Shown here: piece after piece, positions 30,401 to 63,166 of the stretch
Layout of the letters: each line of letters begins with the position of its first letter
Position numbering within the stretch: the first letter of the stretch is position 1
IMG/VR virus record: IMGVR_UViG_3300027733_000050
Location: 1-64,000 of that record
DNA from: a virus
Length of the DNA stretch: 64,000 nucleotides
Direction: 5' to 3' (one strand)
Translations under genes and position numbers: made by a program
Notes under the pieces: generated by a model
Told to the model about the DNA's origin: nothing
Database searches by the model: none
The model's input: only the letters and a program-made list of their open reading frames with translations

Positions 30401-32751
30401 CATTAATAGAGGAAAGATTAAAATATTCAAAGGATAACTTCAATAATTTTTTAAGAGGCAAAAAATCTGATTTTGTTATATTTAGAATAGGCAATACTGA
30501 TCACATAGTTAGCTACGATCAACTAGACAGATTAATGAATGATCAGGAATTTGTTAATAGCACAAAAGGTTCGTTCTCTATTTTTGTTGCTGGTAGTCAA
30601 GTAAATTCTAAGGGTGAAAACCTAAAAGAAAAGGCTATGAAAGTATTTGAGGTTCAGCCTTTAACTCAAGAACAGATTGATGACATGGAAAGGAATGGCA
30701 CTCCAGTGATGGATATATTTGCTAATACAGAGATTCCTAACCTAAATAGTTTAGTTCAAGATTTAGAAGAAAGAATGAATAATGCTGAGGAGATTGATGA
30801 GAAGGACATGAACTCTGCTATTGGAGGATTATACAAACAATTGCAAGATATACTTGACAACCATTACAACACTGAGAACGGAAAGAGAGCTGCTCAAATG
30901 TTGATGGATACAATTGAAAAACTTGAAAATTATGAATTTACAACAAAAGAAGAAACTGTCGATGTTAACGAGAGAACAACAACTCAAAGTATTAGAGAGG
31001 TTGTCAACGCAACAAAAAACATCTTTGGAAGGATCACAGGAACAGCTAAAAGCGGAGCCAAAAAATTCGCAAGAATCGTCACAGGATTCAAGCAGCAAGG
31101 AAAGTATTCAGTAGAAATCAACGAGAAGGATGAGGTTATTTTAACTCCTATGAGTGGAGCCCCTATCGTTCTTGGAAATAGAAAGGATTTAAATGGTAAG
31201 GTAAAGTTTGTTTCGTCTAGCTTTAGCGGAAAGACAGGCAAGATATCTACCATTACCTTCAGAGTAAACGAGGCTAACGAAAACGGTGTGATGCCAGAGG
31301 TTACCTTGTCTACAGCAGATGGATTTAGCTACGATGAATTGCTTGACATGGCTATCGATTTGAGGGCGATGGAGGTTGGTGAGGTTACTACAGAGGAGTT
31401 TGACAATGCAGTAACTGAGGTTGTTACAGGACAGAAGACTGTAAAGACTTTCCCTAATATTGGCAAGGCAGAGCAGAAGGCTAAAGCAAAAGCAGAGGCA
31501 GAAGCACAACAGCAAGCTGCTCCAGAGCAAGCACCGCAACAGACACCAGAGCAGATCAATCAAAGGGTACAGGTATTGCAGGCACAGCAGGAAGAGGAGT
31601 TAAAGGCTGCACAGGATATGATAAAGACATCAAACATCCGTAGCAGTGGAATGACCTTGAGCGAGGCTATAAAGGCAAGAGATGAGAAGGTAAAACAAAT
31701 CAGGGCTAAGTATAAAGTTCTTATTGATAACGCTAAGAAAGGCGTTACAGAGGAAACTCAGCAGGCTGAAGCAGAGCAGCAGCAGAATAAGGATGTTGTA
31801 GACATTACTTCAGACAACATTGAAGATTTGCAAAACATTCCTACTGAAAATAAATTTCAAAAGCGAGTGTTAAATGCGATACCTAACATATTAAAGGCGT
31901 TAGGTAAAATAGTTCCAGGAGTGAAGGTGTCTATTCACTTGACTACACAGTCTTACAGAGACAGTGTACTAAGAGATTCTAATGGAACAAATGATGGAAG
32001 AGGTACAAAGGGATATTATTATAGGGATAGCAAGACCATAAATATTGACTTATCAAAAATAAGCTCTATGGATGGTATGGTTACTACTTTCCACGAAGCG
32101 TTTCATGGTATGTATAAGGAGCTTCCTGATGGATTAAAAAATATTCTTTATGAATCTATCCAGACAATTGTTATGGGAAGTAGTTTTAGATTTAAAATAA
32201 AAACAAAATCTTATTTCAATAAGTTTGCTAAACAGTATACGAATAAAGATAAAAAGAAAGAGAAAGCAATACAGCAGGAAGAAGCAGTTGTTGAGTTCTT
32301 GGGCTATATGGCATCTGGTGGAGTTACATTAACTGTTCCAGGGTATAAGATGTTTATTGAGGCGTTGAACAAAATCCTAGATAAGATCGGTTTAGGTAGC
32401 TTTAAGTTCACCACATCTAATCAGGTAAAAGACTTTGCCAAGGGAGTTGTTAACGCAATGAAGACTGGACAGGATATTACTGAGTTAGTTCCACCATCAA
32501 CTCAAACGCAGCAAGGACAGCAGGATATCTCATTCAGAAATGAAACGGCTAAACTATTCGATCAGGTAAATAATTTAAAGGAAAAGGTTCAGGAAGCGGA
32601 AAATACAGCAGAAAAGCGTAAATTCGCAAGTGAAAGAAGAGAAATGTTGGCCGAGAATCCTTCCGTTAAGCTGATTGACGATAACTTCAAGAATATCATA
32701 GATCAGTTGAAGCAGAACGAAGAGTTTGAGTTTAAGGGCCCTTGCTTCTAA
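27412..32751 (+). CDS. giant virion protein (1779 aa), coiled-coil-rich, with a C-terminal zincin-like HExxH module
   Basis: Long K/E/Q-rich helical regions; ..INIDLSKISSMDGMVTTFHEAFHGM.. (HEAFH at nt 32092-32106), paralogous to the HExxH module of the 2914-aa protein; QQDISFRNE linker-type motif near the C-terminus. Confidence 0.55.
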   Translation: MAEEQDITQVDQTSLDIPSSDLVASSTTEEEKPKPTPKPDPTFRKKIWNGLVALNSKGKIKLSLKSEQEFYTKLDADQEYARQLYSNLKKVVPADNLDQDESVFLSKIYGKPTKPANSGMAANEPMTTTDNKTAKVETVSTDAWEEALYTPAQVAIARKELDANNKQPTPYKLPSGKTVIFKYNSKGNITASYATQGEKATDKFFQLSNDEKLKKESQSAFYNFDQIYEEHQKDQDILRKDQEALDSRGSSFGGMELQAPNKLSSIDRIKYNNRLELYDLKIKQIHDQFDEIIKFGVNEKNYKRFITIDNNGFSVVSQSKIDSLASQILTHYGGNNSSYLKEILVKKLESYLNAFPGMLEASKNTDKKLKSKFEAAADEKVSLLNKAQNEKLLTEEEIKNTSKAYSNEAKVKGTELSKPYLDQIKTLSDQQKSLNDNLEAESKKFFSTLTETDPDIKALYDSYLAQAKELENSQYNNQERNTLNKKFYDDFVKKASPFFEAKQKEFNDKYKTTFDQIGLQINDLAKEMNVKLADLSRSYNDKFRLYQDQRVAQGNKKIADIQKQFQAMGISKELSDEYTRVWKEEFDKYQSKRTAQIYTKNEVDNFGPLGLFTEFGKSVWNNFGGTLENAGTVLDFDALKILGAEMNRGEYGFSIPDISLKSWKDILNPYKIAGSTGQLVGRMVPQIGGQILLGYATGGASLYARVALQTVAGYAFETIDMAGGKYNEILMKTGDPAKASKAAEDLAFLNLRLLPTYGLEVLPFFEEFKNIVKGKSLLSYAGRAGIAGGTEMLTETFLQELPQNAMERKVELDAMYNANVSLSDILFTNGKTLTDKSGKVLIDQEYQRTIKTDASGDLKNTFLNVGPSSFLMAALPHAGSYAKTTYQELSGKRMFAKYKLGLVNSNLAKQKLFEILLTRGENTAGAFLTAMQTSGMVSEVEFNDMLSSLEEMQSLAGLSKREKLSKEDTMLLGALMFEYKTQEKALANPELTADEKSLIEERLKYSKDNFNNFLRGKKSDFVIFRIGNTDHIVSYDQLDRLMNDQEFVNSTKGSFSIFVAGSQVNSKGENLKEKAMKVFEVQPLTQEQIDDMERNGTPVMDIFANTEIPNLNSLVQDLEERMNNAEEIDEKDMNSAIGGLYKQLQDILDNHYNTENGKRAAQMLMDTIEKLENYEFTTKEETVDVNERTTTQSIREVVNATKNIFGRITGTAKSGAKKFARIVTGFKQQGKYSVEINEKDEVILTPMSGAPIVLGNRKDLNGKVKFVSSSFSGKTGKISTITFRVNEANENGVMPEVTLSTADGFSYDELLDMAIDLRAMEVGEVTTEEFDNAVTEVVTGQKTVKTFPNIGKAEQKAKAKAEAEAQQQAAPEQAPQQTPEQINQRVQVLQAQQEEELKAAQDMIKTSNIRSSGMTLSEAIKARDEKVKQIRAKYKVLIDNAKKGVTEETQQAEAEQQQNKDVVDITSDNIEDLQNIPTENKFQKRVLNAIPNILKALGKIVPGVKVSIHLTTQSYRDSVLRDSNGTNDGRGTKGYYYRDSKTINIDLSKISSMDGMVTTFHEAFHGMYKELPDGLKNILYESIQTIVMGSSFRFKIKTKSYFNKFAKQYTNKDKKKEKAIQQEEAVVEFLGYMASGGVTLTVPGYKMFIEALNKILDKIGLGSFKFTTSNQVKDFAKGVVNAMKTGQDITELVPPSTQTQQGQQDISFRNETAKLFDQVNNLKEKVQEAENTAEKRKFASERREMLAENPSVKLIDDNFKNIIDQLKQNEEFEFKGPCF

Positions 32752-33265: not shown

Positions 33266-36200
33266 ATGGCAAAACCTTGTATAGTAAAATATAAAGGAAA
33301 GGAATACAGTGTCGAGCAGTTCTCTGCTATGTTACACGATGGTTTGTTAAACAATCTTATTGAGTCAGGAGCAATCGACCAGAACAAGCTGAAAGGTGAT
33401 CTGAAGCTGTTGCAGGATAATGAGATTAGTTTTCAGTTAGAAAATATATTTTTAAATAGTCCTGACAAGCTATCTAGCTTAACAGAGGTTGCAAATTTTT
33501 TAAATGATTTTATAAAGGCAAACAAACTTTTTGAAGATAAAATAGAAAATGTTGCTGACGATATAGTTGTAAAGGAGTTTGCAAATCATATATCAAAGGA
33601 ATTAAAGGCATGGGACAAGGTGAAGGGATCTAAATATATTGGATTTTATGACGAAGATATTCCAGTTAGATTAAATCCAGAGCTACAAAAATTTGCAGAA
33701 AAAAGATACGGAAGAAAGTTACAAGATTTTGAGGTATCGTTGTATCATATTGTAAGTGCATTTGCATCTCCATCGGCCGATCCTAAGTTTGATTCTTCTA
33801 AGGGACTAGAGGTATTTGACAAGTATATGAAAACTGGTGTATTGACAGGATATACAGACAAGCAGGCAACTGAATGGGAAAAAAATGCAAAGGGGAAAAA
33901 AGTAGATACTGGAAGACTAAAATTTGATAAGAATGGAAATCCTGTTATGAAGCAGGTTGCAAAGGCATATGCCGTTGACTCTTTAGAAAAAGTTAAGACA
34001 GTTATCGATAAATTTAATGGAGATGTGGAGAAGGCTGTTAACTGGTTATTTTCTATACATAGCTATCAAGAACTTTCGGATATTATGAACCTTCCTACAA
34101 AAGGGGAAAAGGCATTATCTGAAAATGAATATTTATCTAAGTCAGATGGGGGGTACGGTGTATTTGCTGTAACTGGGGTAAAGCTAGGATCTTACATATT
34201 AAATAGAGTTGGCAATTACTCTACCGTTACAAAGGATATGTGGTACGCAAGAACCATGGCAAGGTTAGCAGGCGAGTCGTTATTAGAGGATGGTGAAGCT
34301 ATTAAAAGTCCATGGAGCTTAACAAAGGCTAATCTAAGAAAGAGAGTATTGGCTGATAAGGCTTTTGCTATAGTGGCCAAAAAATTAAAGACTACCCCAG
34401 CAATTATTCAGCAAAGAATATGGGACTTTGAAAAGAGACTGTATGAACAATTGGGGACAGTAGAAAAGGAAGGATATGCATCAGAAGGCTTTATTAAAAA
34501 AGCGAAGGAGATTCTTGGGGGAGATATTAGTTTCAGATTCGAGAAGTCTGGTACAGCTACCATAAAGAACGCTCCTAAGGGAACATACTTGAACATAGGA
34601 TTGCTGAAGGGCGAGACTGAAGAGTTGATATCTATTGACGAGGTTTTGTCTAACTTACCTTCAGATGTCAAGGTTGTAAAGCAGAGACAGGTTACAGGAA
34701 CGGAGCCTACTCTTGCGTTGCAGATCAGCAGAAAGATGAGCGATCAAGAAATGGAGGACTTCAGAAACGCTACTGCACAGATGGCTATCCCTCAGTTAAG
34801 CGATGGCAAGGGCGTTATACATGGCACGCAGGAGTGGGGAGAGTTCAACCCAGAGTTCTTTGTATTGCCTAACAATAAGCAGCTGTCAAGCATCGAAGGT
34901 GTTGAGATAACTAGCGTAGAGCCTAACGAAGAAGGGCCTAGTTTCCGTAGAGATGATATTGAGGCTACTGCTAAGGCGTTAGAGGGAGTTGGGTTAACTA
35001 ACATATGGCAGGCTGTAATAGGCAATAGAAAATATGGCAAGCCTGTAAGAGTTAAAGAGGATGGGAAAACATTTACTATTAAAAGAACAGATCCTGCTAC
35101 CAATGAGCCGTATGGATTTGAGCTTGGTGATGGATCGCCATATATTAGAACAGAGAGTGGTGAGTACACTAATGGTGACTCAACTTATGAATCATGGAAT
35201 CAATTCCTTCAAATTAACGAAGGTTCTGGAGTTTTAGATGGCATTTCAGATTTAAATGACACTACAGAGGCTGAGGTAAGGGCTAGAGAAAAAGATTTAA
35301 ATGTATCTTTTAATACTTTAAGCGACCTAGGATTCTGGAATAAGGCTAGCAATATTGTTGCTAATTTTTTAGGTTACGATTCTCCAATGCAAGCACAGGA
35401 GCAGAGCAAGGAAGATACTGAGATATGGAAGAATTTAGTTTCTAAGGCTGTAGATTTATTTAACTCTGGAAAGATTGAAAATATAGTTGATTTTTATAGT
35501 AAAGTATTTGGAATGTCTAAGGAGGAAGCCACTGACAGAAGTGGATACAAGACACCGTTTACTTATTTATCAGAGCAATATTATGATGCAAAGGATAACG
35601 GAAGTAATCCTAACTTAGTAAAGGCAGTTGAAGATCAAATTGGTGAGCAAGGTGGTATTTCATTCCGTTTGACAGAGCCATCAGGCGTTTCTTACAACGA
35701 AACATTAAAGATGGTGGGATTAACTCCATCATCATTAGAAGAATATGCAAAGACAATAAAGGTAACTCAACGACAAAAAAGAATTCCTGAGGCACAAAAG
35801 GCAGCAGAGGAATATAGAAAGGGTAACATAACTCAGGAACAGTATATAAAAACAGTAAGAGAGAAGCAGCCGATTACTCCTTTAAAATCTGTGCCAGTAA
35901 TACCATCCCTAAAAAGAGTTGTTACAAGTCTTGCTACCGACAAAGTAGAGAAAGGAATTATAGGATTAACAAAAGAGGTTCCTAACGGCACGCTGGTAGG
36001 TTTAAGATTAGATATTCCTGCTTACGATAGCTACGATACTTGGGTAGTGTCTGTACACGATGGTGCAAACAGAACTAGCAAAGGTGGATCTATTGGCTAT
36101 GGCCAGGCTGCTGTAATTAAAAATGTAACATTTGGTGCAGAGCCTAAGGCTACATTAGCAATTGCTGTAGATAAAGCAAAGGCTCCTATCGCTCGTATGT

Positions 36201-39200
36201 TTGGGGAGTGGGTAAACGAGGATCCACAGTCTGTAAAAGAAAGAGCAGAGAAGTTAATGAACGATCCTGCTTGGACACAGGTAGGAATGAATCCTTTTAG
36301 ACACAGCTGGTTTTATGACAAGGCTAACGGCAATCCTGTAATATCTGCTGACGAGGTTATTCAAGTAGGTGCTTTGGTATTGGCAAAGAATGTTGTGATG
36401 GGATCGATTACTGACAAGCGTTTTGCTACTAAAAATGACAAGGGAGAACAGATATTCTTCCGTAAAGAAGACAAGGTAAAGGGAAGCTACTTCGAGCCTG
36501 CGATGACAACTGACTCTAAGGGCAACTATGTATTCTTCCACTTCTCTACGGCTCCGTTGAAGTCATTGATGAAGGGTATCGACTCAAGAAAATACTACAG
36601 CACCAGAACATCGAGAGATGAGAAGGGATTGCAGTACGGTGTAGCATCTTACTATACAAAGCCTACAGACAGCGAGAATGTTGTTGGTGGGGATAAGTAT
36701 TATGTAACGATATCTCCTGACAAGGTATACCCAATGGATCTTGATCCTAACGGATACAGAGCTGCGGCAGAGAAGAAGATTAAGAAGAACACACCGTTCA
36801 GAGAGTCTAAGATCAGCAAGGAGATTGCTAATGCAGCTGCACGAGATGGCTACGAGATGGCCGTTGGAGAGTGGAGCTTTGACAGATCTGGATTAACCAA
36901 GAGCGAGATCCCTGAGTTCAGAGGTGATGCATTGGTTCCGTTGAAGCCTACAGAGATTACAGGCAAAGAAAAGTTCAAGACAGGAGAAGAAAGAGGTATC
37001 AAGACCGAGCATCCAGACAGAGCTAGATTGGCATTCAATCAGCAGGTAGAGGATCTTGCATCTGATATTGACTCTTATAAGTCTAGCAAGGGTAAGTTCG
37101 ATGATGCCTATGAGATCGCATCTACTGTTATGGTATACGGCGGTATCGTAGAGGATTACGGAACACCTAACCAGAGAGTAAGACCTCTTACAATGAAAGA
37201 GTTCGACACCATGACCAAGGGATTATCTCCTAAGCTAAAGCAAAGAGCTGAGAAGATAAGAGGTCAGATGGAGGATAATCAAGGTATGTCCTTCAGAATA
37301 GATGAAAAAGAAATAGAAAAACCTACAAAAAATGCTGATGGATCATTAAGATATAATTTTAATTTAATACAAAATGGGAAAAAGGTTGGTAATGTTGTTT
37401 ATGATATTTTAAAAAATAAATTAATAATCCAATCAATTAATTCTTTTAAAAATGGAATCGGTAAATTATATATTGAACAATTAAAAAATAAATATCCAGA
37501 CAAAAAAATAACTGGTTATTCAACTGTATCAGCAAGAGGGTTTTGGGAAAAAATGGGGGCCATTTTTAATGAAAGCGATAAACAAGAAAATTATGATGAT
37601 GACAGTGGCGATTTGACTGGATTTGAACTTCCAAACGAAATCTCCTTCAGAATAGACGAAAACTATAAGAACAATATTGAAAAGCAGTTAGGAAAGTTTG
37701 ACGAGCAAAATAAAAATAAAAAATTTCCATCTGCATTAGAGGTTGCTAAGTACGTATTACCGAAAGATATATTTGATCGATACAGAAATCTTTATGAGAT
37801 GGCTGCTAGAAATAATATTCAAGTTACTATTGACTTAGAGAGGTTGCCGTATAACGCAGTTGCAACTTACTCATATGGATTTATAAATCTTAGTAAATTA
37901 AAATCCTCTTATAATATAAATAACTACGAAGAGTTTGCTGAGGTTTTTAATCATGAAATTATTCATGGATTGTTAAGTAAAGGAATTGATGGATTTACAA
38001 AGAAATTTGATTTTCATAACAATTTACAAAACATAATGCAAGCTGTAATAGATAACTCTGATTCTGCAAGTGAAAATGTTAAAGCAATAATATCTTATAT
38101 TGTAGAGGCTGGTGAGGAATTTAAGGTAAAAGATTATTATAATGCAACAAAGGAAGAATCAGAATCGGGTAATTATAGAACTGTTAATGATTTAGAAGAG
38201 TTAATTACATATGCATTTACGAATACTGAATTTGCAGAGTTCTTAGATTCTATACCAGCATCAAAAGATATTGATGTAAAAGGTAAATCTATTTTTCAAC
38301 AGTTAAAAAATATTATTAGAGACTATATAAAAAAATTAGTTAAGGGGCCTACAGCACTTGATGAAATTAATTCTGTTTTAGATAAATTTTTGGATACAGC
38401 TTGGAATGAGCAAGACATCGCTGAAAGAAATAGCCAGTATAATTGGGGACTAAAGTTTAATGCTGACGAAATCTCCTTCAGAGCAGACATGGGCCAGAGA
38501 AGGATCACCAGCAACCCAAGATTAATGGCGATGCTGTATGGTGCTAACTTCAAGGACTTGAGAAGAGCTATCAATATATCTCCAGACTCATTCTATACTC
38601 CACAAAAATATTCACAGCTGAAGCCACAGATAGCAAACATGTCGGATGCAGAGTTGCTAGCAGCTATCGATGTAGATACAGCATTAGAGGATATATTCCG
38701 TAGCACAGATGGGCCAATCGTTGGTCTTGCTTTTATAGAGTACATCAACAGACTAAAGAATCTGATAGCAAACACTACAGATCAAAATGATATTGATCTT
38801 TACGAAGAGTTAATTCAAAATGCTTACGATTCTGTTGCTCCATTTACAACGAAGGTTGCTCAGATTTTAAGACAACTTGGAGAGATCAAGTCAACGATTA
38901 AGAAAGATGAGGTTCAGTTTTATCTTGACATGATCGAGTCATTGATTAATGCAAATGGTTATATGATTAATGAGGATCATAGGGATGCATTAAGAGGAAT
39001 CATAGAGGTTGTATTAAACAGCAAGAAGAACTATACAACATTGTTCCAGGATTTAGTAAACAAAGGTAGTGGTGTTACGGCACAGGACATACAAGATCTA
39101 AACATGGCAGAGGTTGAACTACAGAACGCTAACGCTGCATTGAACATGATCGTGGCATTCTTATCGCCTCCATCATCAAAAGATTTCTGGTCTGGAGTGT

Positions 39201-42010
39201 TAAGAGGGAACCTAATGTCTGTACGAAGTGCATTGACTGGATTATACTCTAACTTAATAAACATGGGAGTGTTTAAATACAGAAATCTTGTACAGTCTGT
39301 ATTGAGTATTCCATTTGCTATACTTAAAAAAGCTGGCATAAATACTTTTGGACTAGAAAAATATCAGTTTTTTAATACTCCAATTGTATCAAACATTAAG
39401 TACGGATTATTCCTAGATGTATTACAGGATGCTATTGTTGGTGTTACAAAGGCTATTGCTACATTAGGAAAGATAATGATCGGAAAGGAATCGTTTAGAG
39501 GGTTCCTAGATAAATCACCTACAGCCAACAGAGTATTTAATATTATAAAGTATGGTTCTTCAGCACTTGAGGGAGGATCTCCTGTGATATTAGATAAGAG
39601 TAACCACACGATGACAGCTATCAGAAAAGCAATGACATCTAAAGGTGGTAAGACTACACTGAATATTAGAGGAATGAAGATGGATGTAGCTAGCTCATTT
39701 AAGAGAACTAGTTTCAGCAAATGGTTTAAAGTTAACTATCCAGGAAGTGATTACAATTCATTATCTGCAAAGGATAAAAAGATTATTCAAGACGAATTTT
39801 TCAACGATCCTAAGGCTGCTGTACCAACAATAGGTGATAAGGCTGCTGTGTTAGGAAGAGCATTTATGGCCGTTAACTCTGAGTTTGTATTTAGATTAGT
39901 AGCCTTATCGGATTACCTTCCCAAGACTTATGCAAACAATATAGAGATGACTAGACTTGCTCAGACTCTTGGACTAGATGAGAATCAAACTCAGCTATTC
40001 ATGAGGGATCCTGCAAAGTACATAGAGATCATGTCAAATGTATTAACTCCAGAGGCTTTAAACTTTTGGATTGATACAGTAGCAGAGGTTACAGTTACAA
40101 AGGATACAGGATTAGGAAAGGCATCTACAGCTTTCGTAGAGGGCATAAAAAATTATGTTCCTATGAAATTAATGAGAGCATTCCCAGGATTAAGTGATAA
40201 CAAGGCGTTTATAAATGCTGTAGGTGTTTGGCAATTTATTATTGACTCTATTGTTCCGTTTGTTAAGATACCTATGAATGCTATCAGTTTAACAGCGGAC
40301 TTCTTAATTCCTAGTAAGCCGTTTATGAAGGCAATCTATTTTAGTGCATTAGCAATTAAAAATAAAGGAACAGATCAAGCTGAAGCATACGCATTGTCTG
40401 CAATGAAAAACTACTCTATGACCGTTGTAGCATTAGGTTTAAGATCATTAGCAGTTGGTTTGGTGTCAGTTCCAGGACTAGTTGTATTAGCACCAGGGAA
40501 GGATGATGACGATGAGAAGAAGAAAATGAAATCTAAGTTCTCAAGAATGTCAATCAATATCGATGCATTAAAGAGATACTTTACACCAGGAGAAGATCCT
40601 TCATATAAGGATGGTGATCAATACCACTCATTAACAGCATATGGTGTATTAGGGATTTTAATTTATAACTATGCATCAATCAATGACCAAGCTAACAAAA
40701 AATATTACGATGAAATAAGCAAGGCTCCTAAAAACTTATTGCCAAGCGAGGGTATTACATCAAATCCTTTTGATATGTCTACAAGTGGATTTTTAGAGCT
40801 AGAATTAAAGGCATTTGAGGCTAGTCAGTTCTTTATCGATCAGTCATGGTTCGTTGGTATTAATTCAGCGTTGCAGGGATTAACTGGTGGTGAAAAAGGA
40901 GCAGATCAGTTTGTAAATAATTACATAGGAACATTATTGTCTACGTGGTGGGGATTCTCTTCACATGCTCAACAAATATCTGATATGTACAGAGAGATAA
41001 CTGGTAAGCCAGTATTTGATGTAACGCTCCCAACAGAATTGCAGAATGTGAAAAAAGAAGGGTATCCAGGAGTATTTAGTGACCGTATATGGAACAACAT
41101 ATTTAAGAAGAATGAACTTATTCATGATGCTATTATGAAATCTCCAGAGGATAGTGAATACATTAAGTTTAGTATGTATGGTGAGAAAATGAGTCCAGTA
41201 GCAGGAAATACTAAAAATAAATTAGATGTTGCTTTGTCTATCGCAGCTCCAGCTAGAAGGGTTACTCCAAACTTAACCAAGGAAGAAAGATTTTACATGG
41301 CTGTATATGAAAACAAAAATAAGATTAATATTCCAGGGTATGAATTAAGTTTAGCTGAACCAACTATGAATAAAACAGAGAAGTTAAAAGTGTTTTATAA
41401 GGTGGCTGAGTTTGGTCAGGTAGCTGAGACAATAAATGTAATGATCATGCCAAAGGAATACAACAAGATTAACGAAATGGCAGGTGATGCCCTAAGGGAT
41501 TTACACTCTACTTTATTAAGCGAACAAGGTTTATTAGACTTTGAGGTAAGAGGAAAAGTTATAAGCCCAGAAGATATTATGTCCAAAAACTGGGGCAATA
41601 CTAAAGAGGTTGCAAATGTAAGAAATGCAATTGCTGTATCTATTTCAGAGGGGAATAAATTATTAAACACTTTCCTAAAACCATGGGAACTGTTTAGTAA
41701 ACCTGTAACTAATTATATTGGTAAGGAGGAGGCTGCTGTTATTCAAGAGGTAAGATCACTAATTGATACTAGACTATTAACTTACAAGGTTTTAAATCCA
41801 AATACAGGTAAAATGGAAATGCTTTCAAGTTATTTAGTGACTAACCCTGAGTTATCTAATAAATTATACAACCTAGCAAAAGAATCAATCCTATTGTATT
41901 TAAAGGCAGCTAGTGAAGCTATAAATAAAAACGATAAGTATAGAGAGCTATTAGACAACCCAGAAATAACAATAGAGCAAGAAAAAGCTAGAAAAGAAGG
42001 TAATTTTTAA
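33266..42010 (+). CDS. giant modular virion protein (2914 aa) with a recurrent ISFR linker motif, a GNAT-like module and a zincin-like HExxH module
   Basis: SFR tripeptide in a conserved context ((D/E/G)(I/M/P)SFRx(D/E)E) occurs seven times (nt about 34523, 34934, 35651, 37283, 37634, 38465, 39485) plus an ISFQ variant at 33418; GNAT-like KNGIGKLYIEQL...SARGFWEKMGAIF (nt about 37300-37620); FNHEIIHGL at nt 37952-37966. Confidence 0.6.
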   Translation: MAKPCIVKYKGKEYSVEQFSAMLHDGLLNNLIESGAIDQNKLKGDLKLLQDNEISFQLENIFLNSPDKLSSLTEVANFLNDFIKANKLFEDKIENVADDIVVKEFANHISKELKAWDKVKGSKYIGFYDEDIPVRLNPELQKFAEKRYGRKLQDFEVSLYHIVSAFASPSADPKFDSSKGLEVFDKYMKTGVLTGYTDKQATEWEKNAKGKKVDTGRLKFDKNGNPVMKQVAKAYAVDSLEKVKTVIDKFNGDVEKAVNWLFSIHSYQELSDIMNLPTKGEKALSENEYLSKSDGGYGVFAVTGVKLGSYILNRVGNYSTVTKDMWYARTMARLAGESLLEDGEAIKSPWSLTKANLRKRVLADKAFAIVAKKLKTTPAIIQQRIWDFEKRLYEQLGTVEKEGYASEGFIKKAKEILGGDISFRFEKSGTATIKNAPKGTYLNIGLLKGETEELISIDEVLSNLPSDVKVVKQRQVTGTEPTLALQISRKMSDQEMEDFRNATAQMAIPQLSDGKGVIHGTQEWGEFNPEFFVLPNNKQLSSIEGVEITSVEPNEEGPSFRRDDIEATAKALEGVGLTNIWQAVIGNRKYGKPVRVKEDGKTFTIKRTDPATNEPYGFELGDGSPYIRTESGEYTNGDSTYESWNQFLQINEGSGVLDGISDLNDTTEAEVRAREKDLNVSFNTLSDLGFWNKASNIVANFLGYDSPMQAQEQSKEDTEIWKNLVSKAVDLFNSGKIENIVDFYSKVFGMSKEEATDRSGYKTPFTYLSEQYYDAKDNGSNPNLVKAVEDQIGEQGGISFRLTEPSGVSYNETLKMVGLTPSSLEEYAKTIKVTQRQKRIPEAQKAAEEYRKGNITQEQYIKTVREKQPITPLKSVPVIPSLKRVVTSLATDKVEKGIIGLTKEVPNGTLVGLRLDIPAYDSYDTWVVSVHDGANRTSKGGSIGYGQAAVIKNVTFGAEPKATLAIAVDKAKAPIARMFGEWVNEDPQSVKERAEKLMNDPAWTQVGMNPFRHSWFYDKANGNPVISADEVIQVGALVLAKNVVMGSITDKRFATKNDKGEQIFFRKEDKVKGSYFEPAMTTDSKGNYVFFHFSTAPLKSLMKGIDSRKYYSTRTSRDEKGLQYGVASYYTKPTDSENVVGGDKYYVTISPDKVYPMDLDPNGYRAAAEKKIKKNTPFRESKISKEIANAAARDGYEMAVGEWSFDRSGLTKSEIPEFRGDALVPLKPTEITGKEKFKTGEERGIKTEHPDRARLAFNQQVEDLASDIDSYKSSKGKFDDAYEIASTVMVYGGIVEDYGTPNQRVRPLTMKEFDTMTKGLSPKLKQRAEKIRGQMEDNQGMSFRIDEKEIEKPTKNADGSLRYNFNLIQNGKKVGNVVYDILKNKLIIQSINSFKNGIGKLYIEQLKNKYPDKKITGYSTVSARGFWEKMGAIFNESDKQENYDDDSGDLTGFELPNEISFRIDENYKNNIEKQLGKFDEQNKNKKFPSALEVAKYVLPKDIFDRYRNLYEMAARNNIQVTIDLERLPYNAVATYSYGFINLSKLKSSYNINNYEEFAEVFNHEIIHGLLSKGIDGFTKKFDFHNNLQNIMQAVIDNSDSASENVKAIISYIVEAGEEFKVKDYYNATKEESESGNYRTVNDLEELITYAFTNTEFAEFLDSIPASKDIDVKGKSIFQQLKNIIRDYIKKLVKGPTALDEINSVLDKFLDTAWNEQDIAERNSQYNWGLKFNADEISFRADMGQRRITSNPRLMAMLYGANFKDLRRAINISPDSFYTPQKYSQLKPQIANMSDAELLAAIDVDTALEDIFRSTDGPIVGLAFIEYINRLKNLIANTTDQNDIDLYEELIQNAYDSVAPFTTKVAQILRQLGEIKSTIKKDEVQFYLDMIESLINANGYMINEDHRDALRGIIEVVLNSKKNYTTLFQDLVNKGSGVTAQDIQDLNMAEVELQNANAALNMIVAFLSPPSSKDFWSGVLRGNLMSVRSALTGLYSNLINMGVFKYRNLVQSVLSIPFAILKKAGINTFGLEKYQFFNTPIVSNIKYGLFLDVLQDAIVGVTKAIATLGKIMIGKESFRGFLDKSPTANRVFNIIKYGSSALEGGSPVILDKSNHTMTAIRKAMTSKGGKTTLNIRGMKMDVASSFKRTSFSKWFKVNYPGSDYNSLSAKDKKIIQDEFFNDPKAAVPTIGDKAAVLGRAFMAVNSEFVFRLVALSDYLPKTYANNIEMTRLAQTLGLDENQTQLFMRDPAKYIEIMSNVLTPEALNFWIDTVAEVTVTKDTGLGKASTAFVEGIKNYVPMKLMRAFPGLSDNKAFINAVGVWQFIIDSIVPFVKIPMNAISLTADFLIPSKPFMKAIYFSALAIKNKGTDQAEAYALSAMKNYSMTVVALGLRSLAVGLVSVPGLVVLAPGKDDDDEKKKMKSKFSRMSINIDALKRYFTPGEDPSYKDGDQYHSLTAYGVLGILIYNYASINDQANKKYYDEISKAPKNLLPSEGITSNPFDMSTSGFLELELKAFEASQFFIDQSWFVGINSALQGLTGGEKGADQFVNNYIGTLLSTWWGFSSHAQQISDMYREITGKPVFDVTLPTELQNVKKEGYPGVFSDRIWNNIFKKNELIHDAIMKSPEDSEYIKFSMYGEKMSPVAGNTKNKLDVALSIAAPARRVTPNLTKEERFYMAVYENKNKINIPGYELSLAEPTMNKTEKLKVFYKVAEFGQVAETINVMIMPKEYNKINEMAGDALRDLHSTLLSEQGLLDFEVRGKVISPEDIMSKNWGNTKEVANVRNAIAVSISEGNKLLNTFLKPWELFSKPVTNYIGKEEAAVIQEVRSLIDTRLLTYKVLNPNTGKMEMLSSYLVTNPELSNKLYNLAKESILLYLKAASEAINKNDKYRELLDNPEITIEQEKARKEGNF

Positions 42011-47782: not shown

Positions 47783-47850
47783 TGGAGGATATAGGACTCG
47801 AACCTATTACTAGTGGATTACCACTGCTTTACCTGTTAAGCTAATCCTCC
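47783..47850 (-). ncRNA. tRNA-like element (degenerate/pseudo-tRNA) between the M15 peptidase and serine recombinase genes
   Basis: The minus strand reads GGAGGAT-TA-GCTT-AACAGGTA-AAGC-A-GTGG-TAAT-CCAC-TAGTA-ATAGG-TTCGAGT-CCTAT-ATCCTCC-A: perfect 7-bp acceptor, D-arm and T-arm, but the anticodon arm is about 4 nt short (4-nt loop). Confidence 0.45.
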
Positions 47851-49970: not shown

Positions 49971-50858
49971 TTATTTCTCATTTTTTGCAAAATTAATTTC
50001 ATATTGAGTTTTATTTTGTTCGTTTAAATCATTGATACCACAAAATCCATTGCACTCGAATAAAGGTTCTACCTTTCTAATTGGCATGTCATCTAAAGAT
50101 TTTAGTTGAGGATACTTAGGATGCTTCTTTAAAAACAATAAAGTATTTCCAGTTTCCTTTGCCTCATTACCTTGATCCTTTAGCATTGTAACAGGCTCGC
50201 CTTTCATATCGGTTAGCTTATGTTCCATATTTGCCATGGCATCAAATTTATCAGGGAAGTCTACTCTTATTTTTTGCCAATAACCTATCCCTCCCTGAAC
50301 ACAACCTGTACCAAAGCAATTATTATTCCTAAATCCTAACTTATACATAATAGGTATCTCTATCCCTACATCTTCAATCATCTTTAGGCAAGCATCTTTA
50401 TCTAATCCCATCATCAACAATGGATATATCCCTTTAGCTTTTGGATGATTCATGGTTAAAGATTTAGCTCTGTTAAATTCTTTTTTATCAAATTCAAATC
50501 CGAATATTTGATAATCATATTCAACACTTTTCTGCCACTGCTCCCTAACCCTTCTTTTAAGATTGGTTGAACATATTGCACCTGTAGCAACATTTAATGA
50601 CTTATGCTTTATCCAAACATCTTGTATGCTGTCATATTTATCTCCTATCGCAGTAATTGTTTCTATTTCCTTGCCATACCACTTTTCGCAGTCTAACTTA
50701 AACCTATAAGTATCTGGGTGTTCATTCTTGGTATCAATCATTACAATCCTGCAATTTTTTACTCCAAATAAATCAATACCTATCTTACAAGATACAGCAC
50801 TTGTTATTCCACCACTCCACCAAGCTATTACTTTTTTCATGTTGTTATTTTTATCCAA
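49971..50858 (-). CDS. PAPS-reductase-like PP-loop ATP pyrophosphatase family protein
   Basis: VIAWWSGGITSAVS = SGGxxS PP-loop; size 295 aa; C-terminal cysteine pairs; a family commonly phage-borne (CysH/DndC-like fold). Confidence 0.5.
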   Translation of the reverse strand: MDKNNNMKKVIAWWSGGITSAVSCKIGIDLFGVKNCRIVMIDTKNEHPDTYRFKLDCEKWYGKEIETITAIGDKYDSIQDVWIKHKSLNVATGAICSTNLKRRVREQWQKSVEYDYQIFGFEFDKKEFNRAKSLTMNHPKAKGIYPLLMMGLDKDACLKMIEDVGIEIPIMYKLGFRNNNCFGTGCVQGGIGYWQKIRVDFPDKFDAMANMEHKLTDMKGEPVTMLKDQGNEAKETGNTLLFLKKHPKYPQLKSLDDMPIRKVEPLFECNGFCGINDLNEQNKTQYEINFAKNEK

Positions 50859-51078
50859 TTAGTTCATCAGCGTTTATATTATGGTTGTCAAAGTGTTCGA
50901 GTATCTTGGTCATCACTTGCTCTGATGATAACTCCCCTTGCTCTTCCATCCATTCAAGTTCCTTACGCATATTTCTAAGTTCCCATAGCACACATGCCAT
51001 GTCTAATGCTTTGACGCATCTCAGATGTGATCTTACATCATCTGGTTCGTTGAGGTCGAATTTAATTATTCCTTCCAT
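50851..51078 (-). CDS. hypothetical small acidic protein (75 aa)
   Basis: ORF track. Confidence 0.4.
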   Translation of the reverse strand: MEGIIKFDLNEPDDVRSHLRCVKALDMACVLWELRNMRKELEWMEEQGELSSEQVMTKILEHFDNHNINADELIG

Positions 51079-51221
51079 GGTTTATTTTATTTGTTGTTAC
51101 GTTACTATTAGTACCACTTTACATATTGTAGAGCATTTACTTTACATATTGTGCATTATATCGCACATTAAGTTGTATTTATTAGGTTAATGTAGCATAA
51201 GTCCATCATTAAGTGCTTTAT

Positions 51222-51303
51222 ATTGCACATTAATTGCACCATAATTGCACCAATTGCACAATTTGTGGCTCATAATGGGCTCATATTGGGCTCAATTGGC
51301 TCA
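51222..51303. repeat. two iteron arrays with identical 11-11-9 bp spacing: 4x ATTGCAC (51222, 51233, 51244, 51253) and 4x GGCTCA (51267, 51278, 51289, 51298)
   Basis: Direct repeats at helical-turn spacing inside a 480-bp AT-rich intergenic region; origin-of-replication or regulator-binding array. Confidence 0.55.
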
Positions 51304-51566
51304 TTTTTAACACCCTATAAGGTATAATTAAGTTAATGAATGATATATCATACCTTTTTGGGTATAAATTTTATACTACTTGGTATTATACCATTTAGTC
51401 CCATATTTAATCTTTATTTGGGACGAACTATTCCTAAAACTTAGCAGTTGTCCGATGTTTTAGGACTACTAAAATAAATGCTTGTCTTTCCAAGCTGTCA
51501 GGATTTTTTATCTATGCAGTGCTTCTCCTTGCACTATTTCAGATGGTTACAAATTGTAACGGTTTG

Positions 51567-51875
51567 CTATTGTTGACCTCCGTATGTTTCGTTGTAGTAA
51601 TACTCTGCATTTCTATTATACCATAGTGAACTTCTTTCTGATTGTTGGTCTGTCCTACCATCACGATAAGTATTAACTATCTGCTCTTTCTCCATTGCTT
51701 TTGCCTCAAGCAAGTCAAAGAGGTCTAACTTTTTATTCGCTGATTGTAAATACAACCATTCAACTGCTGTCTGCTTACTCATTGTTACCTCCGAATATTT
51801 CGCTATAGTATTTTTCGCCTTGCTCTCCATTCCAGTCATTGTATGGATGATTATCAAATATCCGCTGACCTTCAA
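51567..51875 (-). CDS. small protein, paralogue of the next gene (likely true start at the internal MSKQTAVEW, about 51785)
   Basis: KQTAVEWLY and the C-terminal YYNETYGGQQ match KQTSVEWFL ... YYSEIFGGNNE of ORF 51775-52029. Confidence 0.4.
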   Translation of the reverse strand: MKVSGYLIIIHTMTGMESKAKNTIAKYSEVTMSKQTAVEWLYLQSANKKLDLFDLLEAKAMEKEQIVNTYRDGRTDQQSERSSLWYNRNAEYYYNETYGGQQ

Positions 51876-52029
51876 TGTGTGCTTTAACTATCTCCTGTCT
51901 ATGCATCTGCCTCGCTTCATGCTTTAACTTCGCCATCTCCTCAGCAATTGAATATCCTTCGCTATCATACAACTCCTTGCGGTGTGTTAGCTGATCTAAA
52001 AACCATTCTACTGATGTTTGTTTATTCAT
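51775..52029 (-). CDS. small protein, tandem paralogue of the previous gene (84 aa)
   Basis: Shared N- and C-terminal motifs with ORF 51567-51875. Confidence 0.45.
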   Translation of the reverse strand: MNKQTSVEWFLDQLTHRKELYDSEGYSIAEEMAKLKHEARQMHRQEIVKAHIEGQRIFDNHPYNDWNGEQGEKYYSEIFGGNNE

Positions 52030-52929: not shown

Positions 52930-53218
52930 TGTTTTTGTATTTTATAAATATTTCTAGTGCCATCTCAAATGGTATGTTGGTAAGGAAGACACTATCTATT
53001 CCCCTAACATAAATGTTAGCCAATCCATTATAATTTTCATCATCCTCTAACTCCACATTTCTAATGCAAGATATATCGTTCATGTCTATACTACATGTCA
53101 TCCATACATCGTTTACTATTCCCATGTCCTCCATGTACTTGCTATAGCAAGCTACCTTGCAGATCAATATGCTACCATACACCGATGGCTCTTCTAAATT
53201 AATTCTGTTCTTCCTCAT
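52922..53218 (-). CDS. hypothetical protein (98 aa)
   Basis: ORF track. Confidence 0.4.
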   Translation of the reverse strand: MRKNRINLEEPSVYGSILICKVACYSKYMEDMGIVNDVWMTCSIDMNDISCIRNVELEDDENYNGLANIYVRGIDSVFLTNIPFEMALEIFIKYKNNG

Positions 53219-53795
53219 CGTAGATTAAAATTTTATCGTTTATAACTCTATTTAATATTTTTCTGCTTACCTCCATGCACAACTCAGGTGATGCATCCTT
53301 GAACTCTTCGATCAGTATGTTGCATATTGTGTTGATATTGTTCAGTCCCCACTTCTTGAAGATGTTGTCGCTTAACTTATAATTCTTCAGCAACTGCAAC
53401 GTAAAGTCATCCATGCTCTTGCTAAGGTGCTTGTTGAACTGATAATGATCTTGCCCTGTAATATACAAACTCCTTACGTTAGCCGCACTGATATCCTTGC
53501 CTCTGATTCGAAACAACATGCTGATTGCCTCAGATGTTGCTCCCGATAACCTATGCAGTGAATAGGCTAACATTCTTCTGCCAGCAACACCGCTAGCCTT
53601 GTTGCTATTGGAATATACATCCATCAACGTATATCCACTCTCGATCAAGGTCATCTCGCCTGCCGTAAACAAGATCTCTAGATCCTCCTTTATTGACTTG
53701 CTACATGCCTTACATGTGCCTATCCCTATTCCCTTCTGCTGATGGTTAACCTTGCAGATGGAACATATCTTGTATGTGAATTCTTCTCTTGTCAT
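53199..53795 (-). CDS. DNA-binding protein with N-terminal C4 zinc finger and C-terminal helix-turn-helix (HTH) resembling DnaA domain IV
   Basis: CSIC..x13..CKAC; later GRRMLAYSLHRLSGATSEAISMLFRIRGKDISAANV resembles the DnaA C-terminal/LuxR-like HTH. Confidence 0.35.
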   Translation of the reverse strand: MTREEFTYKICSICKVNHQQKGIGIGTCKACSKSIKEDLEILFTAGEMTLIESGYTLMDVYSNSNKASGVAGRRMLAYSLHRLSGATSEAISMLFRIRGKDISAANVRSLYITGQDHYQFNKHLSKSMDDFTLQLLKNYKLSDNIFKKWGLNNINTICNILIEEFKDASPELCMEVSRKILNRVINDKILIYDEEEQN

Positions 53796-54751: not shown

Positions 54752-54976
54752 TTATGCCAACTTTTTTAATATGTTCGTTTCCATTCCATAATGGATAGCC
54801 ACCTTATCGTAAGTAATCGCAGCCTCTCTCTCGCCTTCGGGCGTAGGATCAAAGTAACCTAGGTGCTTGGATACAACCGATCCGTTGTTGTTAACCCTGA
54901 TCCTAGCCTGATACTTGCGAATGTTTGGCTTGAATACTACACCCCTATACTGAGATGATTTATTCTTTACTCCCAT
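54752..54976 (-). CDS. stand-alone AP2/ERF-type DNA-binding domain protein
   Basis: SQYRGVVFKPNIRKYQARIRVNNNGSVVSKHLGYFDPTPEGEREAAITYDKVAIHYG matches the AP2 fold consensus (YRGV...W.A.I...G..V.LGTFDT.EEAA.AYD.AA...G). Confidence 0.7.
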   Translation of the reverse strand: MGVKNKSSQYRGVVFKPNIRKYQARIRVNNNGSVVSKHLGYFDPTPEGEREAAITYDKVAIHYGMETNILKKLA

Positions 54977-61530: not shown

Positions 61531-61539
61531 GATTATAAG

Positions 61540-61553
61540 TATTAAGGGTTAAT
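61540..61553 (-). promoter_or_regulatory. motif copy upstream of gene 61063-61530
   Basis: tattaagggttaat on the + strand. Confidence 0.4.
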
Positions 61554-61580
61554 AATTAGTTAACGTGATTACTAGTTGGT

Positions 61581-61796
61581 TTATTGCTTGCCTACTGACA
61601 TTGCACCTAGGATTGCGACTACAAACTGAAGACTAAATACTATAACTGCTGACTGCTCTGTTACTGCTCCAAGTAATCCAATCGTTGCTACTAGTGTGCA
61701 AGTGATTGTTAGTTTAAGTTTGTTTGTCATGGCGTTGTTATCGTTGGTGTTCGGTATAATAACAGCGAAACTACATCGGATATTGTGCTTTGTCAA
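61581..61796 (-). CDS. small membrane protein (71 aa)
   Basis: Hydrophobic helices (LTITCTLVATIGLLGAV; VIVFSLQFVVAILGAM). Confidence 0.35.
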   Translation of the reverse strand: MTKHNIRCSFAVIIPNTNDNNAMTNKLKLTITCTLVATIGLLGAVTEQSAVIVFSLQFVVAILGAMSVGKQ

Positions 61797-61889
61797 GCAT
61801 TATTTTGTAAGTGATTGATTATCAGCATAAAAACTTTCAATAATTCTTTACAATGTGGTTGTGTGTATGGATGCAATGAACTAAGTCTA

Positions 61890-62520
61890 TATTACTGCGT
61901 GCGTGTACACTCGCAGGATACCATTACGTGCGTGCGTGCGTATGTGCGTGCGTTCTTTGTTAATAGGTTGCAATAAATTCTATGTGCCAAAATCGTGCCA
62001 AACTATTGCTATTCCCAAAATGGGAAACTTGTCCCAAAATGGGAATTTACGTTCATTTATTTTCATTTATACGTGTGGTTGTCACAACATTTGTACGTAC
62101 AACAGTTGTATATACAACAATCGATTGCTTGTCTACTGCGTGTGCGTGTGCGTTTGTCTACTGCGTGCGATTGTCTACTGCGTGTGCGTGCGTGACTTGA
62201 TGCAAGGCTTGATAGGTGTATTAAGCCTAGGTAATTTGTCTCGTAAGCCTAGGTGTAACGCAATGAGCCTTAATCATTTGCATCTGCATCTAGGAGTGGA
62301 AATCGGATGGCTTTTGTTTTTACTTTCTTCGTTGGTGGCAACTAACGTCAACACATAACGCTTTTGCATTTGCCTCTGCGTTCGTGTGTGTGGAGGGGGT
62401 GTTTTTTTTCTTCCTTGCGTCCACCTATATGCTACGTATACTAGATCACACCTGCAATTTTAGAATTTTTAGAGGGCATTACCCTGGCCTGGGTGGGGGG
62501 GAATTGTTTTACAGGGGAGG
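61890..62520. repeat. GC-enriched non-coding repeat island: (CG/TG)n alternating tracts, 3x GTCTACTGCGTG, 2x palindromic TTCCCAAAATGGGAA, 2x TAAGCCTAGGT, 2x TTCATTTAT, TTGTATATACAA palindrome and G7 tracts
   Basis: Seen directly; no credible ORF (the track ORFs here are Cys/Val-rich artefacts of the repeats); composition differs from the flanking AT-rich DNA. Confidence 0.55.
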
Positions 62521-62684
62521 ACATTCTATTAGCCTTTATAGTGGTTATAGGAAGTATTGTATATCAGTTACTTGTATTGTAGCCAGTATAAATATAGCAT
62601 GGATCTTTAAACTATAGATAACATTAGTAATCAATTACTTACAAAACAGTAGTATGATCTGAGGAATAAGTTTAAACGTAATTA

Positions 62685-63165
62685 ATAACTGATAATCAAT
62701 AACTTATATATACAACATTACATAACTGAAAGTAAAAGTATAGTACATAGTAAAAATATAAAAATCGTTAGTAAAAGGTATAAAATACATTATTGTATAA
62801 AATAAGGGGGTATAGGGGTAATATAGGGAATCCTGGGTTTCGATATACAGCATGGCCCTAGATATACTGATAATCAGCTACTAATTCAAAAATAAGATCG
62901 AGTTGCCAGAAAAACCCGAAAATTAACTCATTGATTATCAGGGAGAAATTCCATGAAAAGATGTTCTCCATGAGTATCAATTAGTTACGTAAAAAACAGG
63001 CGTTAGGTATAATTCTGGCACACAAATTGCATGCAGATCCAGCAAGAAACGACTGCAAAAACGATGAAAACAGCGTTCCATGGTATAATTCTGGCACACG
63101 ATTTGCAATAAAAATCTAAAAACAAAGTAAAAAAAATAACCAAATTCACAACTAATTGATTATCA
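62685..63165 (+). promoter_or_regulatory. control region upstream of the RHH gene: four copies of the palindrome CTGAT(A/T)ATCAG (about 62687, 62868, 62931, 63156) and a duplicated 25-bp promoter-like element GGTATAATTCTGGCACAC(A/G)A(A/T)TTGCA (63009, 63085)
   Basis: Seen directly; TATAAT-containing direct repeats 76 bp apart; palindromic operators flanking them; the last operator overlaps the RHH start codon. Confidence 0.45.
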
Positions 63166-63166
63166 G

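Follow-up and report, generated by a model that had tools for sequence, protein, structure and literature searches.

Phased repeat arrays in a phage operon leader and at the 3' ends of bacterial Schlafen-type genes: candidate binding platforms for host proteins

Small proteins such as Cox of phage P2, Apl of phage 186, ParR at parC, and omega bind cooperatively to helically phased direct repeats, and iterons are found at the origins of lambdoid phages as well as in plasmids of the theta and rolling-circle types (e.g., the 11-bp iterons of pMV158). Clusters of sites can also act as titration loci, as in the case of datA of Escherichia coli, a DnaA sink in which clustered sites soak up the protein. 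To our knowledge, no viral titration locus aimed at host defense proteins has been described. In the E. coli origin oriC, two clusters of four low-affinity 9-bp DnaA sites with 2-bp separation are found (PMC6070618). Among prokaryotic Schlafen proteins, those combining AlbA_2, HATPase_c_4, and winged helix-turn-helix (wHTH) domains (COG2865) form the pSlfn-HisKinase-HTH class, which represents 19.2% of the total, is enriched in defense islands, and carries fused domains proposed to be infection sensors (bioRxiv 10.1101/2025.07.24.666596; PMC12839542). Here, we describe two phased repeat arrays of the window, the term used throughout for the whole 64,000-nucleotide stretch analyzed (positions 1 to 64,000 of IMG/VR virus record IMGVR_UViG_3300027733_000050), which is a phage-like genome, and report that arrays of the same kind, of which the phage arrays may be copies, stand directly after the stop codons of bacterial Schlafen-type genes.

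The arrays are located in a non-coding gap of 488 bp (51079-51566), one of three gaps longer than 400 bp in the window, which the initial annotation, made from the sequence alone, had given as a 480-bp intergenic region. Array A (CAC-type) consists of four ATTGCAC units on the plus strand, starting at 51222, 51233, 51244, and 51253 (51222-51259), and array B (GCT-type) of four GGCTCA units on the same strand, starting at 51267, 51278, 51289, and 51298 (51267-51303). The exact positions bear out the claim of that annotation that both are spaced 11-11-9. Indeed, a scan of the 64 kb for any 6-mer present in at least four copies at 9-12 bp spacing returned arrays A and B as sole hits, and no comparable array was obtained when the window was shuffled 200 times with its dinucleotides preserved. 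Neither ATTGCAC nor GGCTCA was enriched in the rest of the window. An assembly artefact can be discarded, since three independent metagenome assemblies from other samples (loci L168, L169, and L170) contain the intergenic region without a single base difference. In the direction of transcription, which is that of the minus strand, four TGAGCC units are followed by four GTGCAAT units, with spacing 9-11-11 in each array. Array A is read on this strand as 9-mers of the form [T/G]GTGCAAT[T/A] and, when viewed as 9-mers, both arrays leave gaps of 0, 2, and 2 bp between sites. The two cores are alike at 4/6 positions (TGAGCC vs TGTGCA). The spacers, as read from the sequence, are unrelated, and a 45-bp unit duplicated recently in tandem was therefore rejected as the source of the two arrays. 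As a separate observation, matches to TGAGCCMAW with up to one mismatch are scarce in the window (28, including the four array units, vs 54 ± 7.8 in shuffles, all 100 of which gave at least 28), a scarcity outside the array that could be due either to avoidance of stray sites or to a codon-level effect.

A search of one genome per prokaryotic species with the pattern GTGCAAT-N2-GTGCAAT-N4-GTGCAA identified at least 120 bacterial contigs matching the ATTGCAC array, nearly all of them from Bacteroidota, with some from Ignavibacteria, Acidobacteria, and others. Among the 120 matches listed, 29 contained the exact 26-mer found at 51234-51259 of the window, and in 93 the array lay between -30 and +60 nt from the 3' end of a Schlafen-type gene, mostly at 1-13 nt, the linked arrays being always on the strand that reads ATTGCAC. 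Bacterial arrays usually comprise three units, and the spacing was 11,9 in 87 and 11,9,11,11 in 17 of these 120 loci. The linked gene encodes a protein of ~440 aa composed of SLFN_AlbA_2, HATPase_c_4, and a C-terminal winged helix, and the motif E-x4-[ED]-x-K was present in all 120 homologues listed. At least 7,999 relatives belong to this gene family at E ≤ 1e-30. In keeping with the defense-island setting reported for the class, the neighbors in the loci looked up are restriction-modification, abortive infection (Abi), toxin-antitoxin, and insertion sequence (IS) genes, and a match to Argonaute-associated Schlafen modules was obtained with PADLOC. The gene located beyond the array is heterogeneous (98 Pfam families among 89 open reading frames [ORFs], none in more than 5), indicating that the array belongs with the Schlafen gene. 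On the same grounds, the possibility that the bacterial arrays are operators for a conserved downstream gene was rejected.

The phage arrays share with their bacterial counterparts the core motifs (the exact 26-mer and ATTGGCTCA), the 11/9 spacing, the head-to-tail orientation, and the pairing of types. They differ in having four units instead of the usual three, in their position in an operon leader, and in lacking the gene, whereas the bacterial array touches or overlaps the Schlafen stop codon. No homologue of the Schlafen gene was detected in the window by tblastn and hidden Markov model (HMM) searches, so that the phage copy is an orphan array and not a full unit of gene and array. Full-text searches returned no paper containing the repeat strings, and we found no account of the 3' arrays in the literature. 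Neither the association of Schlafen genes with arrays nor the occurrence of such arrays in a phage appears to have been described.

A further comparison of the bacterial loci revealed that different winged-helix sequences go with different motifs in the array adjacent to the stop codon, the 11-then-9 spacing remaining constant. Helices of the SRNTASNDL type are followed by ATTGCAC arrays (72 loci), those of the GKTTATE[ED]L type by ATTGGCC arrays (two loci, L220 and L263), those of the SKSTATRDI type by TTGG[TC]TC arrays, and those of the KQTLSSQEL type by ATTGTTCG arrays, while the SKATATRDL type is associated with three copies of ATTGGCTCA, spaced 11 then 9 (L247 and L326-L331). As predicted, four distinct SKATATRDL proteins (P0011, P0019, P0117, and P0128, from seven loci) all end in three copies of ATTGGCTCA. 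In the three proteins found in addition to that of L247, which come from Pseudarcicella, Ferruginibacter, and another contig, ATTGGCTCAtaATTGGCTCAATTGGCTCA overlaps the last codons. The GGCTCA units of the window match the sequence ATTGGCTCA(T/A)A of L326-L331. Similarly, the SRETATRDL protein P0064 ends in three copies of ATTGCGTCA, the unit type of the third repeat in the GTGCAAT array of the related phage L134 (GACGCAAT, CGT-type). Two array types are also found side by side in the bacterial loci L247 and L319, and vestigial ATTGCAC units lie further downstream of newer arrays in all the loci looked up. Homologues of the L247 protein (L247, L326-L333; P0011-P0130) are 83-100% identical over ~370 aa and carry discrete, swapped C-terminal winged-helix types, which suggests that, in different Bacteroidota orders, the DNA-binding module and its site are replaced jointly, like a cassette. 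Given the co-variation and the outcome predicted for the SKATATRDL proteins, the two arrays of the window would correspond to two Schlafen specificity classes.

Taken as a whole, we give a probability of roughly 50% to the arrays being platforms that bind host Schlafen-type proteins of two specificity classes. Binding of the winged helix to its cognate array would be the simplest account of the constant geometry and of the co-variation between motif and helix. Each platform would be made up of head-to-tail 9-bp sites at 11/9-bp spacing, placing several copies of the protein on one face of the helix, with ATTGCAC serving the SRNTASNDL class and GGCTCA the SKATATRDL class. Because the phage carries the sites but no such protein, we infer that the arrays would be occupied in the infected cell by Schlafen-type proteins of the host. 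The arrays are located after a promoter-like block and ahead of the first gene of the operon, and are multiplied by replication of the genome. Their occupation would most likely have one of two outcomes, namely the titration of two host defense proteins on decoy DNA, or a role of the host proteins in timing the downstream operon, for which they would act as a roadblock or operator. Within the platform interpretation, we consider decoy and operator roughly equal. The specific proposal that the arrays are amplifiable decoys, soaking up or misleading host Schlafen-HisKinase-wHTH proteins and disarming an abortive-infection tRNase, is put forward tentatively. Such decoys would resemble datA in being a cluster of sites that absorbs a protein rather than regulating an adjacent gene, and would differ from it in their viral carrier and in having host defense proteins as targets. 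With regard to the initial annotation, which had read the phased repeats either as a replication origin or as sites for the cooperative binding of a protein, the array geometry and the co-variation in bacteria strongly support the second of these possibilities, and the first has little support.

Several points weigh against binding by host Schlafen proteins. Canonical 11/9 arrays borne by phages are rare, being found in 2 viral contigs for the ATTGCAC form (both relatives within this phage group) and in 3 for the TGGCTCA form. The two Schlafen architectures shown to defend are others than the HisKinase-HTH class (bioRxiv 10.1101/2025.07.24.666596). The presence of both Schlafen classes in the host of the phage is an assumption, and the platform interpretation gives no reason for a binding site at the 3' end of the protein's own gene. 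The phage arrays are oriented opposite to transcription and cannot be essential, being absent from the close relative L198. The co-variation could instead reflect the joint movement of the wHTH segment and the array as one recombination module. Finally, a DnaA-domain-IV-like protein encoded by the phage itself could bind asymmetric 9-mers.

Relatives were collected through the 75-aa acidic protein of no known function encoded by the first gene past the leader (50851-51078, minus strand), which yielded 5 viral and 34 metagenomic loci. More loci were added by exact-protein look-ups, and L335 by a pattern scan. Four GTGCAAT units are present in the lineage of the window, three in L134, L153, L193, and L335, two in L194 and L141, and none in L198, zero being also the number in most relatives. 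In all the phage arrays with three units, a spacing of 9 is followed by one of 11 when read as transcribed. The TGAGCC/GGCTCA array was found in none of ~110 related phage loci, and is thus limited to the lineage of the window. L134 is a near-same phage, with most neighboring proteins 90-100% identical to those of the window, and its GTGCAAT array aligns exactly at the position of the window's TGAGCC array. Overall, copy number and type of array differ among near-identical phages (87-100% identity in neighboring proteins). The distant relative L334, with structural proteins ~30% identical, also carries a canonical array. Many of the related loci have the hairpins and the promoter-like block, and the stretch from this block to the gene is a hypervariable mosaic.

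A mosaic of modules gained and lost among relatives, including a whole additional small ORF in the leader of L153-L155, together with the lack of arrays in L198, is what could be seen if the arrays were functionless passenger DNA, either host scrap or a recombination scar in an insertion-tolerant leader. They might then be moved by the phage RecET or by the process that swaps wHTH and arrays in bacteria. Consistent with this, ATTGCAC units can persist without a partner, because vestigial units remain in bacterial loci downstream of newer arrays. However, all eight units are perfect and their exact spacing is kept, the region is identical across independent assemblies, and intact canonical 11/9 arrays are found in related phages and in the distant L334. 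Moreover, no host coding sequence flanks the arrays, and the two types adjoin without any other trace of host DNA here. We regard a passenger origin as unlikely. A wider sharing of the repeats among viruses was also considered, since 19 and 38 unrelated viral contigs carry three ATTGCAC or three GGCTCA units, respectively, at 11-11 spacing. This was rejected as a shared system because a composition-matched scrambled hexamer, GCCTGA x3 with 11-bp spacing, was found in 25 viral contigs compared with the 38 for GGCTCA, indicating that generic phased triplets represent background. No window protein was common to the unrelated viral loci with 11-11 triplets.

The phage-encoded protein mentioned above is a 198-aa product (53199-53795, minus strand) composed of a zinc ribbon at the N terminus and a DnaA domain IV fold, which the initial annotation had proposed, as a zinc-finger/HTH protein, to be a binder of the repeats. 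It is retained here as a rival candidate and is not the binder that we favor. In that case, the arrays would be the operator for this regulator, or for another early protein, which would form head-to-tail oligomers on the 9-mers past the promoter-like block and turn the operon that follows on or off, as an early-to-middle timing device like Cox of P2 or Apl of 186. The geometry of the arrays is that of the oriC site clusters (PMC6070618), the arrays of L193 and L194 begin directly after -10-like elements, and the ATTGCAC arrays are confined to lineages encoding the 198-aa protein, 10 loci without the protein being also without arrays. Nevertheless, this co-occurrence is confounded by kinship, since the protein-bearing lineages constitute one clade with 87-100% identity, and L198 keeps the protein with zero ATTGCAC units. 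The protein is also 96% identical in L134, which is devoid of the GGCTCA array, and a search for a second paralogue of the DnaA DNA-binding domain (DBD) that could account for the second specificity found none. The distant homologue P0005 (L202-L204) has no arrays up to 6 kb away, and no such gene was found near any of the 120 bacterial arrays listed. When viral contigs were scanned with a profile of the 198-aa family, no relative was identified.

The resemblance to DnaA sites is likewise partial. Array sites match the DnaA box (TTATCCACA) at no more than 5/9 positions, the best match being TGTGCAATT vs TGTGGATAA (5/9), and the GGCTCA units match less. Phage and oriC have in common two clusters of four 9-bp sites with 2-bp gaps and a DnaA-fold protein encoded nearby. 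The phage clusters, in contrast with the opposed ones of oriC, run in the same direction, are each internally uniform, and are not conserved among relatives, and the 198-aa protein differs from DnaA in lacking the AAA+ domain. Within the phage group, the only element with which the 198-aa protein co-occurs perfectly, in one closely related clade, is a different one, the CTACAATATGTAAAGT pair. This operator-like pair (51116-51152) is made up on the plus strand of ACTTTACATATTGT and a second copy at a distance of 23 bp, which read CTACAATATGTAAAGT on the minus strand, and each copy contains a TACA-N3-TGTA palindrome. It was found in all five lineages with the DnaA-domain-IV-like protein (window/L168, L134, L193, L194, and L198), as well as in L153, and was missing from the 10 loci without the protein. 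Altogether, we regard a phage operator as an unlikely function for the arrays.

The standalone AP2-like protein of 74 aa (54752-54976, minus strand), the other binder put forward in the initial annotation, is not supported as a candidate. It displays the motifs YRGV...LGYF...EAAITYDKVA and matches PHROG_99 (E 9e-8), with no Pfam hit and a weak BLASTP match. Its gene is missing from L193 and L194, which have arrays, and from L198, which has no ATTGCAC units, and its product is identical in L134, which is without the GGCTCA array, so the gene tracks neither array. A single-sequence AF2 model of the protein was too poor for use (pLDDT 53). As an aside, PHROG_99 represents HNH-AP2 homing endonucleases, of whose profiles the protein matches the AP2 portion, and the patchy presence of the gene is as expected of a putative mobile-element remnant.

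With regard to other phage-encoded binders, the annotation scans (Pfam and/or PHROGs) covered 40 ORFs of the minus-strand block. None of the 40 was identified as Cox, Apl, a ribbon-helix-helix (RHH) protein, ParA, or ParM, so that a partition centromere of the ParR/parC, ParG, or omega type has no support among them. The arrays are similar to those of Cox, Apl, and the RHH proteins (ParR/parC, omega) in being short phased direct repeats beside a promoter, here a predicted one, and would differ from them in that the likely binder is encoded by the host. A small serine recombinase, considered as a res/att-site binder of the arrays, was also rejected, its likely site being the gap beside its own gene. 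That 138-bp gap, between the genes for the endolysin and the recombinase, contains a tRNA-like element (47783-47850, minus strand), which matches the full Rfam tRNA model with 54.9 bits (gathering threshold 29), with an anticodon loop region of 4 nt vs 9. ARAGORN called no tRNA in the window. The element could represent either a tRNA-derived core of the attP type or a tRNA in decay.

The use of the gap as the phage origin, with the arrays as initiator iterons in AT-rich flanks activated by transcription from the adjacent promoter, is in line with the phased direct repeats, with the low GC content of the flanks on both sides of the arrays (0.22-0.28, in a gap that as a whole has only 0.31 GC within a genome of ~0.36), with the gap being one of three large non-coding ones, and with the DnaA-DBD-like protein encoded 2 kb upstream. 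In addition, no DNA polymerase, primase, or helicase was recognizable in the ORFs scanned, which were those of the minus-strand block. As in lambdoid phages and plasmids, direct repeats of about one helical turn lie in AT-rich non-coding DNA. The phage repeats differ from those iterons in the unstable copy number, in having no adjacent initiator gene and no skew signal, and in recurring in bacterial chromosomes in a non-origin context, where arrays are located at the 3' ends of defense-type genes in at least 120 genomes. The candidate initiator, the 198-aa protein, lacks an AAA+ module. The initial annotation had named GC skew and conservation in related phages as checks on its proposal of an origin. 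Cumulative GC skew, a test confounded here by gene orientation, peaks near 45 kb, is lowest near 60-61 kb, and does not turn at 51.2 kb, and conservation failed in both arrays, ATTGCAC units ranging from 0 to 4 in near-identical phages and the GGCTCA array being restricted to a single lineage. Both this instability and the location of the arrays directly past -10-like elements speak against iterons essential for an origin, and an origin based on the arrays appears improbable. A second, larger, mostly non-coding, and repeat-rich stretch (61531-63166) is found at the divergence of the transcription blocks and at the GC-skew minimum. It contains TTGTCTACTGCGTGTGCGTG x3, TGCG/TGTG runs, the palindromic TCCCAAAATGGGAA x2, TAAGCCTAGGT x2, and a 26-mer with GGTATAAT present twice (63006 and 63082), and seems a better place a priori for an origin or for early promoters.

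With respect to the rest of the leader, both flanking genes are on the minus strand (51567-51782 upstream and 50851-51078 downstream). In the direction of transcription, the first element of the gap is the perfect palindrome GTTACAATTTGTAAC (51547-51561), directly past the stop codon of the upstream gene and kept in L129, L130, L134-L136, L139, and L148. It is followed by one of the GTGC-N8-GCAC palindromes (51519-51534). Three minus-strand hairpins then follow the upstream operon, the first of them terminator-like (GCTTGGAAAGACAAGC and a T-run, 51480-51495) and the other two formed by TCCTAAAAC...GTTTTAGGA (51435-51471) and GTCCCA...TGGGAC (51398-51424). These are modules that relatives share in differing combinations. 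The predicted promoter-like or operator-like block on the minus strand (51311-51393) contains TGGTATAATACCA, an extended -10-like 13-bp palindrome (51381-51393), GTATAAAA, and two TATACC-N5/6-GGTAT[AG] inverted repeats. The GGTATA elements of the initial annotation are therefore real, as inverted-repeat and -10-like modules, and are conserved better in relatives than the arrays, the block being kept in L129-L136, L139, and L153-L155. The sequence GTATAATACCAAGT has exactly one copy in the window.

Beyond the TGAGCC and GTGCAAT arrays, two more GTGC-N8-GCAC palindromes precede the CTACAATATGTAAAGT pair and the start codon. The first, GTGCTTTATATTGCAC (51213-51228), merges with the last GTGCAAT, that is, it overlaps the first ATTGCAC unit, and is also found in L133/L152, L147, L148, L154, and L155, and the second, GTGCATTATATCGCAC (51151-51166), contains TATAAT on the minus strand. 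All three matches to GTGC-N8-GCAC in the window, vs 0.41 expected, lie inside the intergenic region. Folding of the leader RNA gave z = -5.1 and Rfam returned no match in the leader. A role of the repeats in RNA was set aside because their spacing is that of the DNA helical repeat and the number of units varies. At the start of the 75-aa gene, most relatives (L129-L136 and L193-L198) have AGAGCAATATAAT[AG]CACTT-ATG, with a perfect TATAAT 6 bases before the ATG and no Shine-Dalgarno sequence, whereas upstream early genes use strong AAGGAGGT sites. Judging from these motifs, the arrangement looks like a leaderless transcript start, from which the window departs with TAAAATAAACC-ATG. Just upstream of the leader, tandem paralogous small proteins are encoded (51567-52029 in the window, and also in L131, L135, L137, L143, and L151), with conserved N-terminal KQTAVEWL, central AMEKEQI, and C-terminal YYNETYGG motifs, a copy number that varies among relatives, and no Pfam or PHROG match.

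At the scale of the window, structural genes occupy the plus strand up to ~44.7 kb, and the minus-strand block (44.7-61.5 kb) encodes a RecE-like exonuclease, RecT, the small serine recombinase, the endolysin, and a PAPS-reductase-like gene. The operon downstream of the leader includes lysis and RecET genes. Pfam and PHROGs gave almost no annotation across the 40 neighboring ORFs, and no DNA or protein match in cultured phages was found for the region, a 604-aa ORF, or the 198-aa protein. The structural block contains very long plus-strand ORFs (16961-21676, 1571 aa; 27412-32751, 1779 aa; 33266-42010, 2914 aa), and the phages encoding P0005 also have ORFs of 1507 and 4174 aa.

The Schlafen 3' arrays provide a testable candidate DNA ligand for the HTH sensor of this class of defense genes. 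If the platform interpretation is correct, a large class of prokaryotic Schlafen proteins would recognize repeat arrays at the 3' ends of their own genes, and the presence in a phage of orphan arrays for two specificities would mean that host defense proteins can be exploited or neutralized through DNA sites alone. Were the arrays decoys, they would constitute a new category of anti-defense device, made of DNA rather than protein, and would explain the rapid swapping of modules at the 3' ends of Schlafen genes, so that the turnover of arrays in phages and the exchange of wHTH and arrays in their hosts would be two sides of an arms race.

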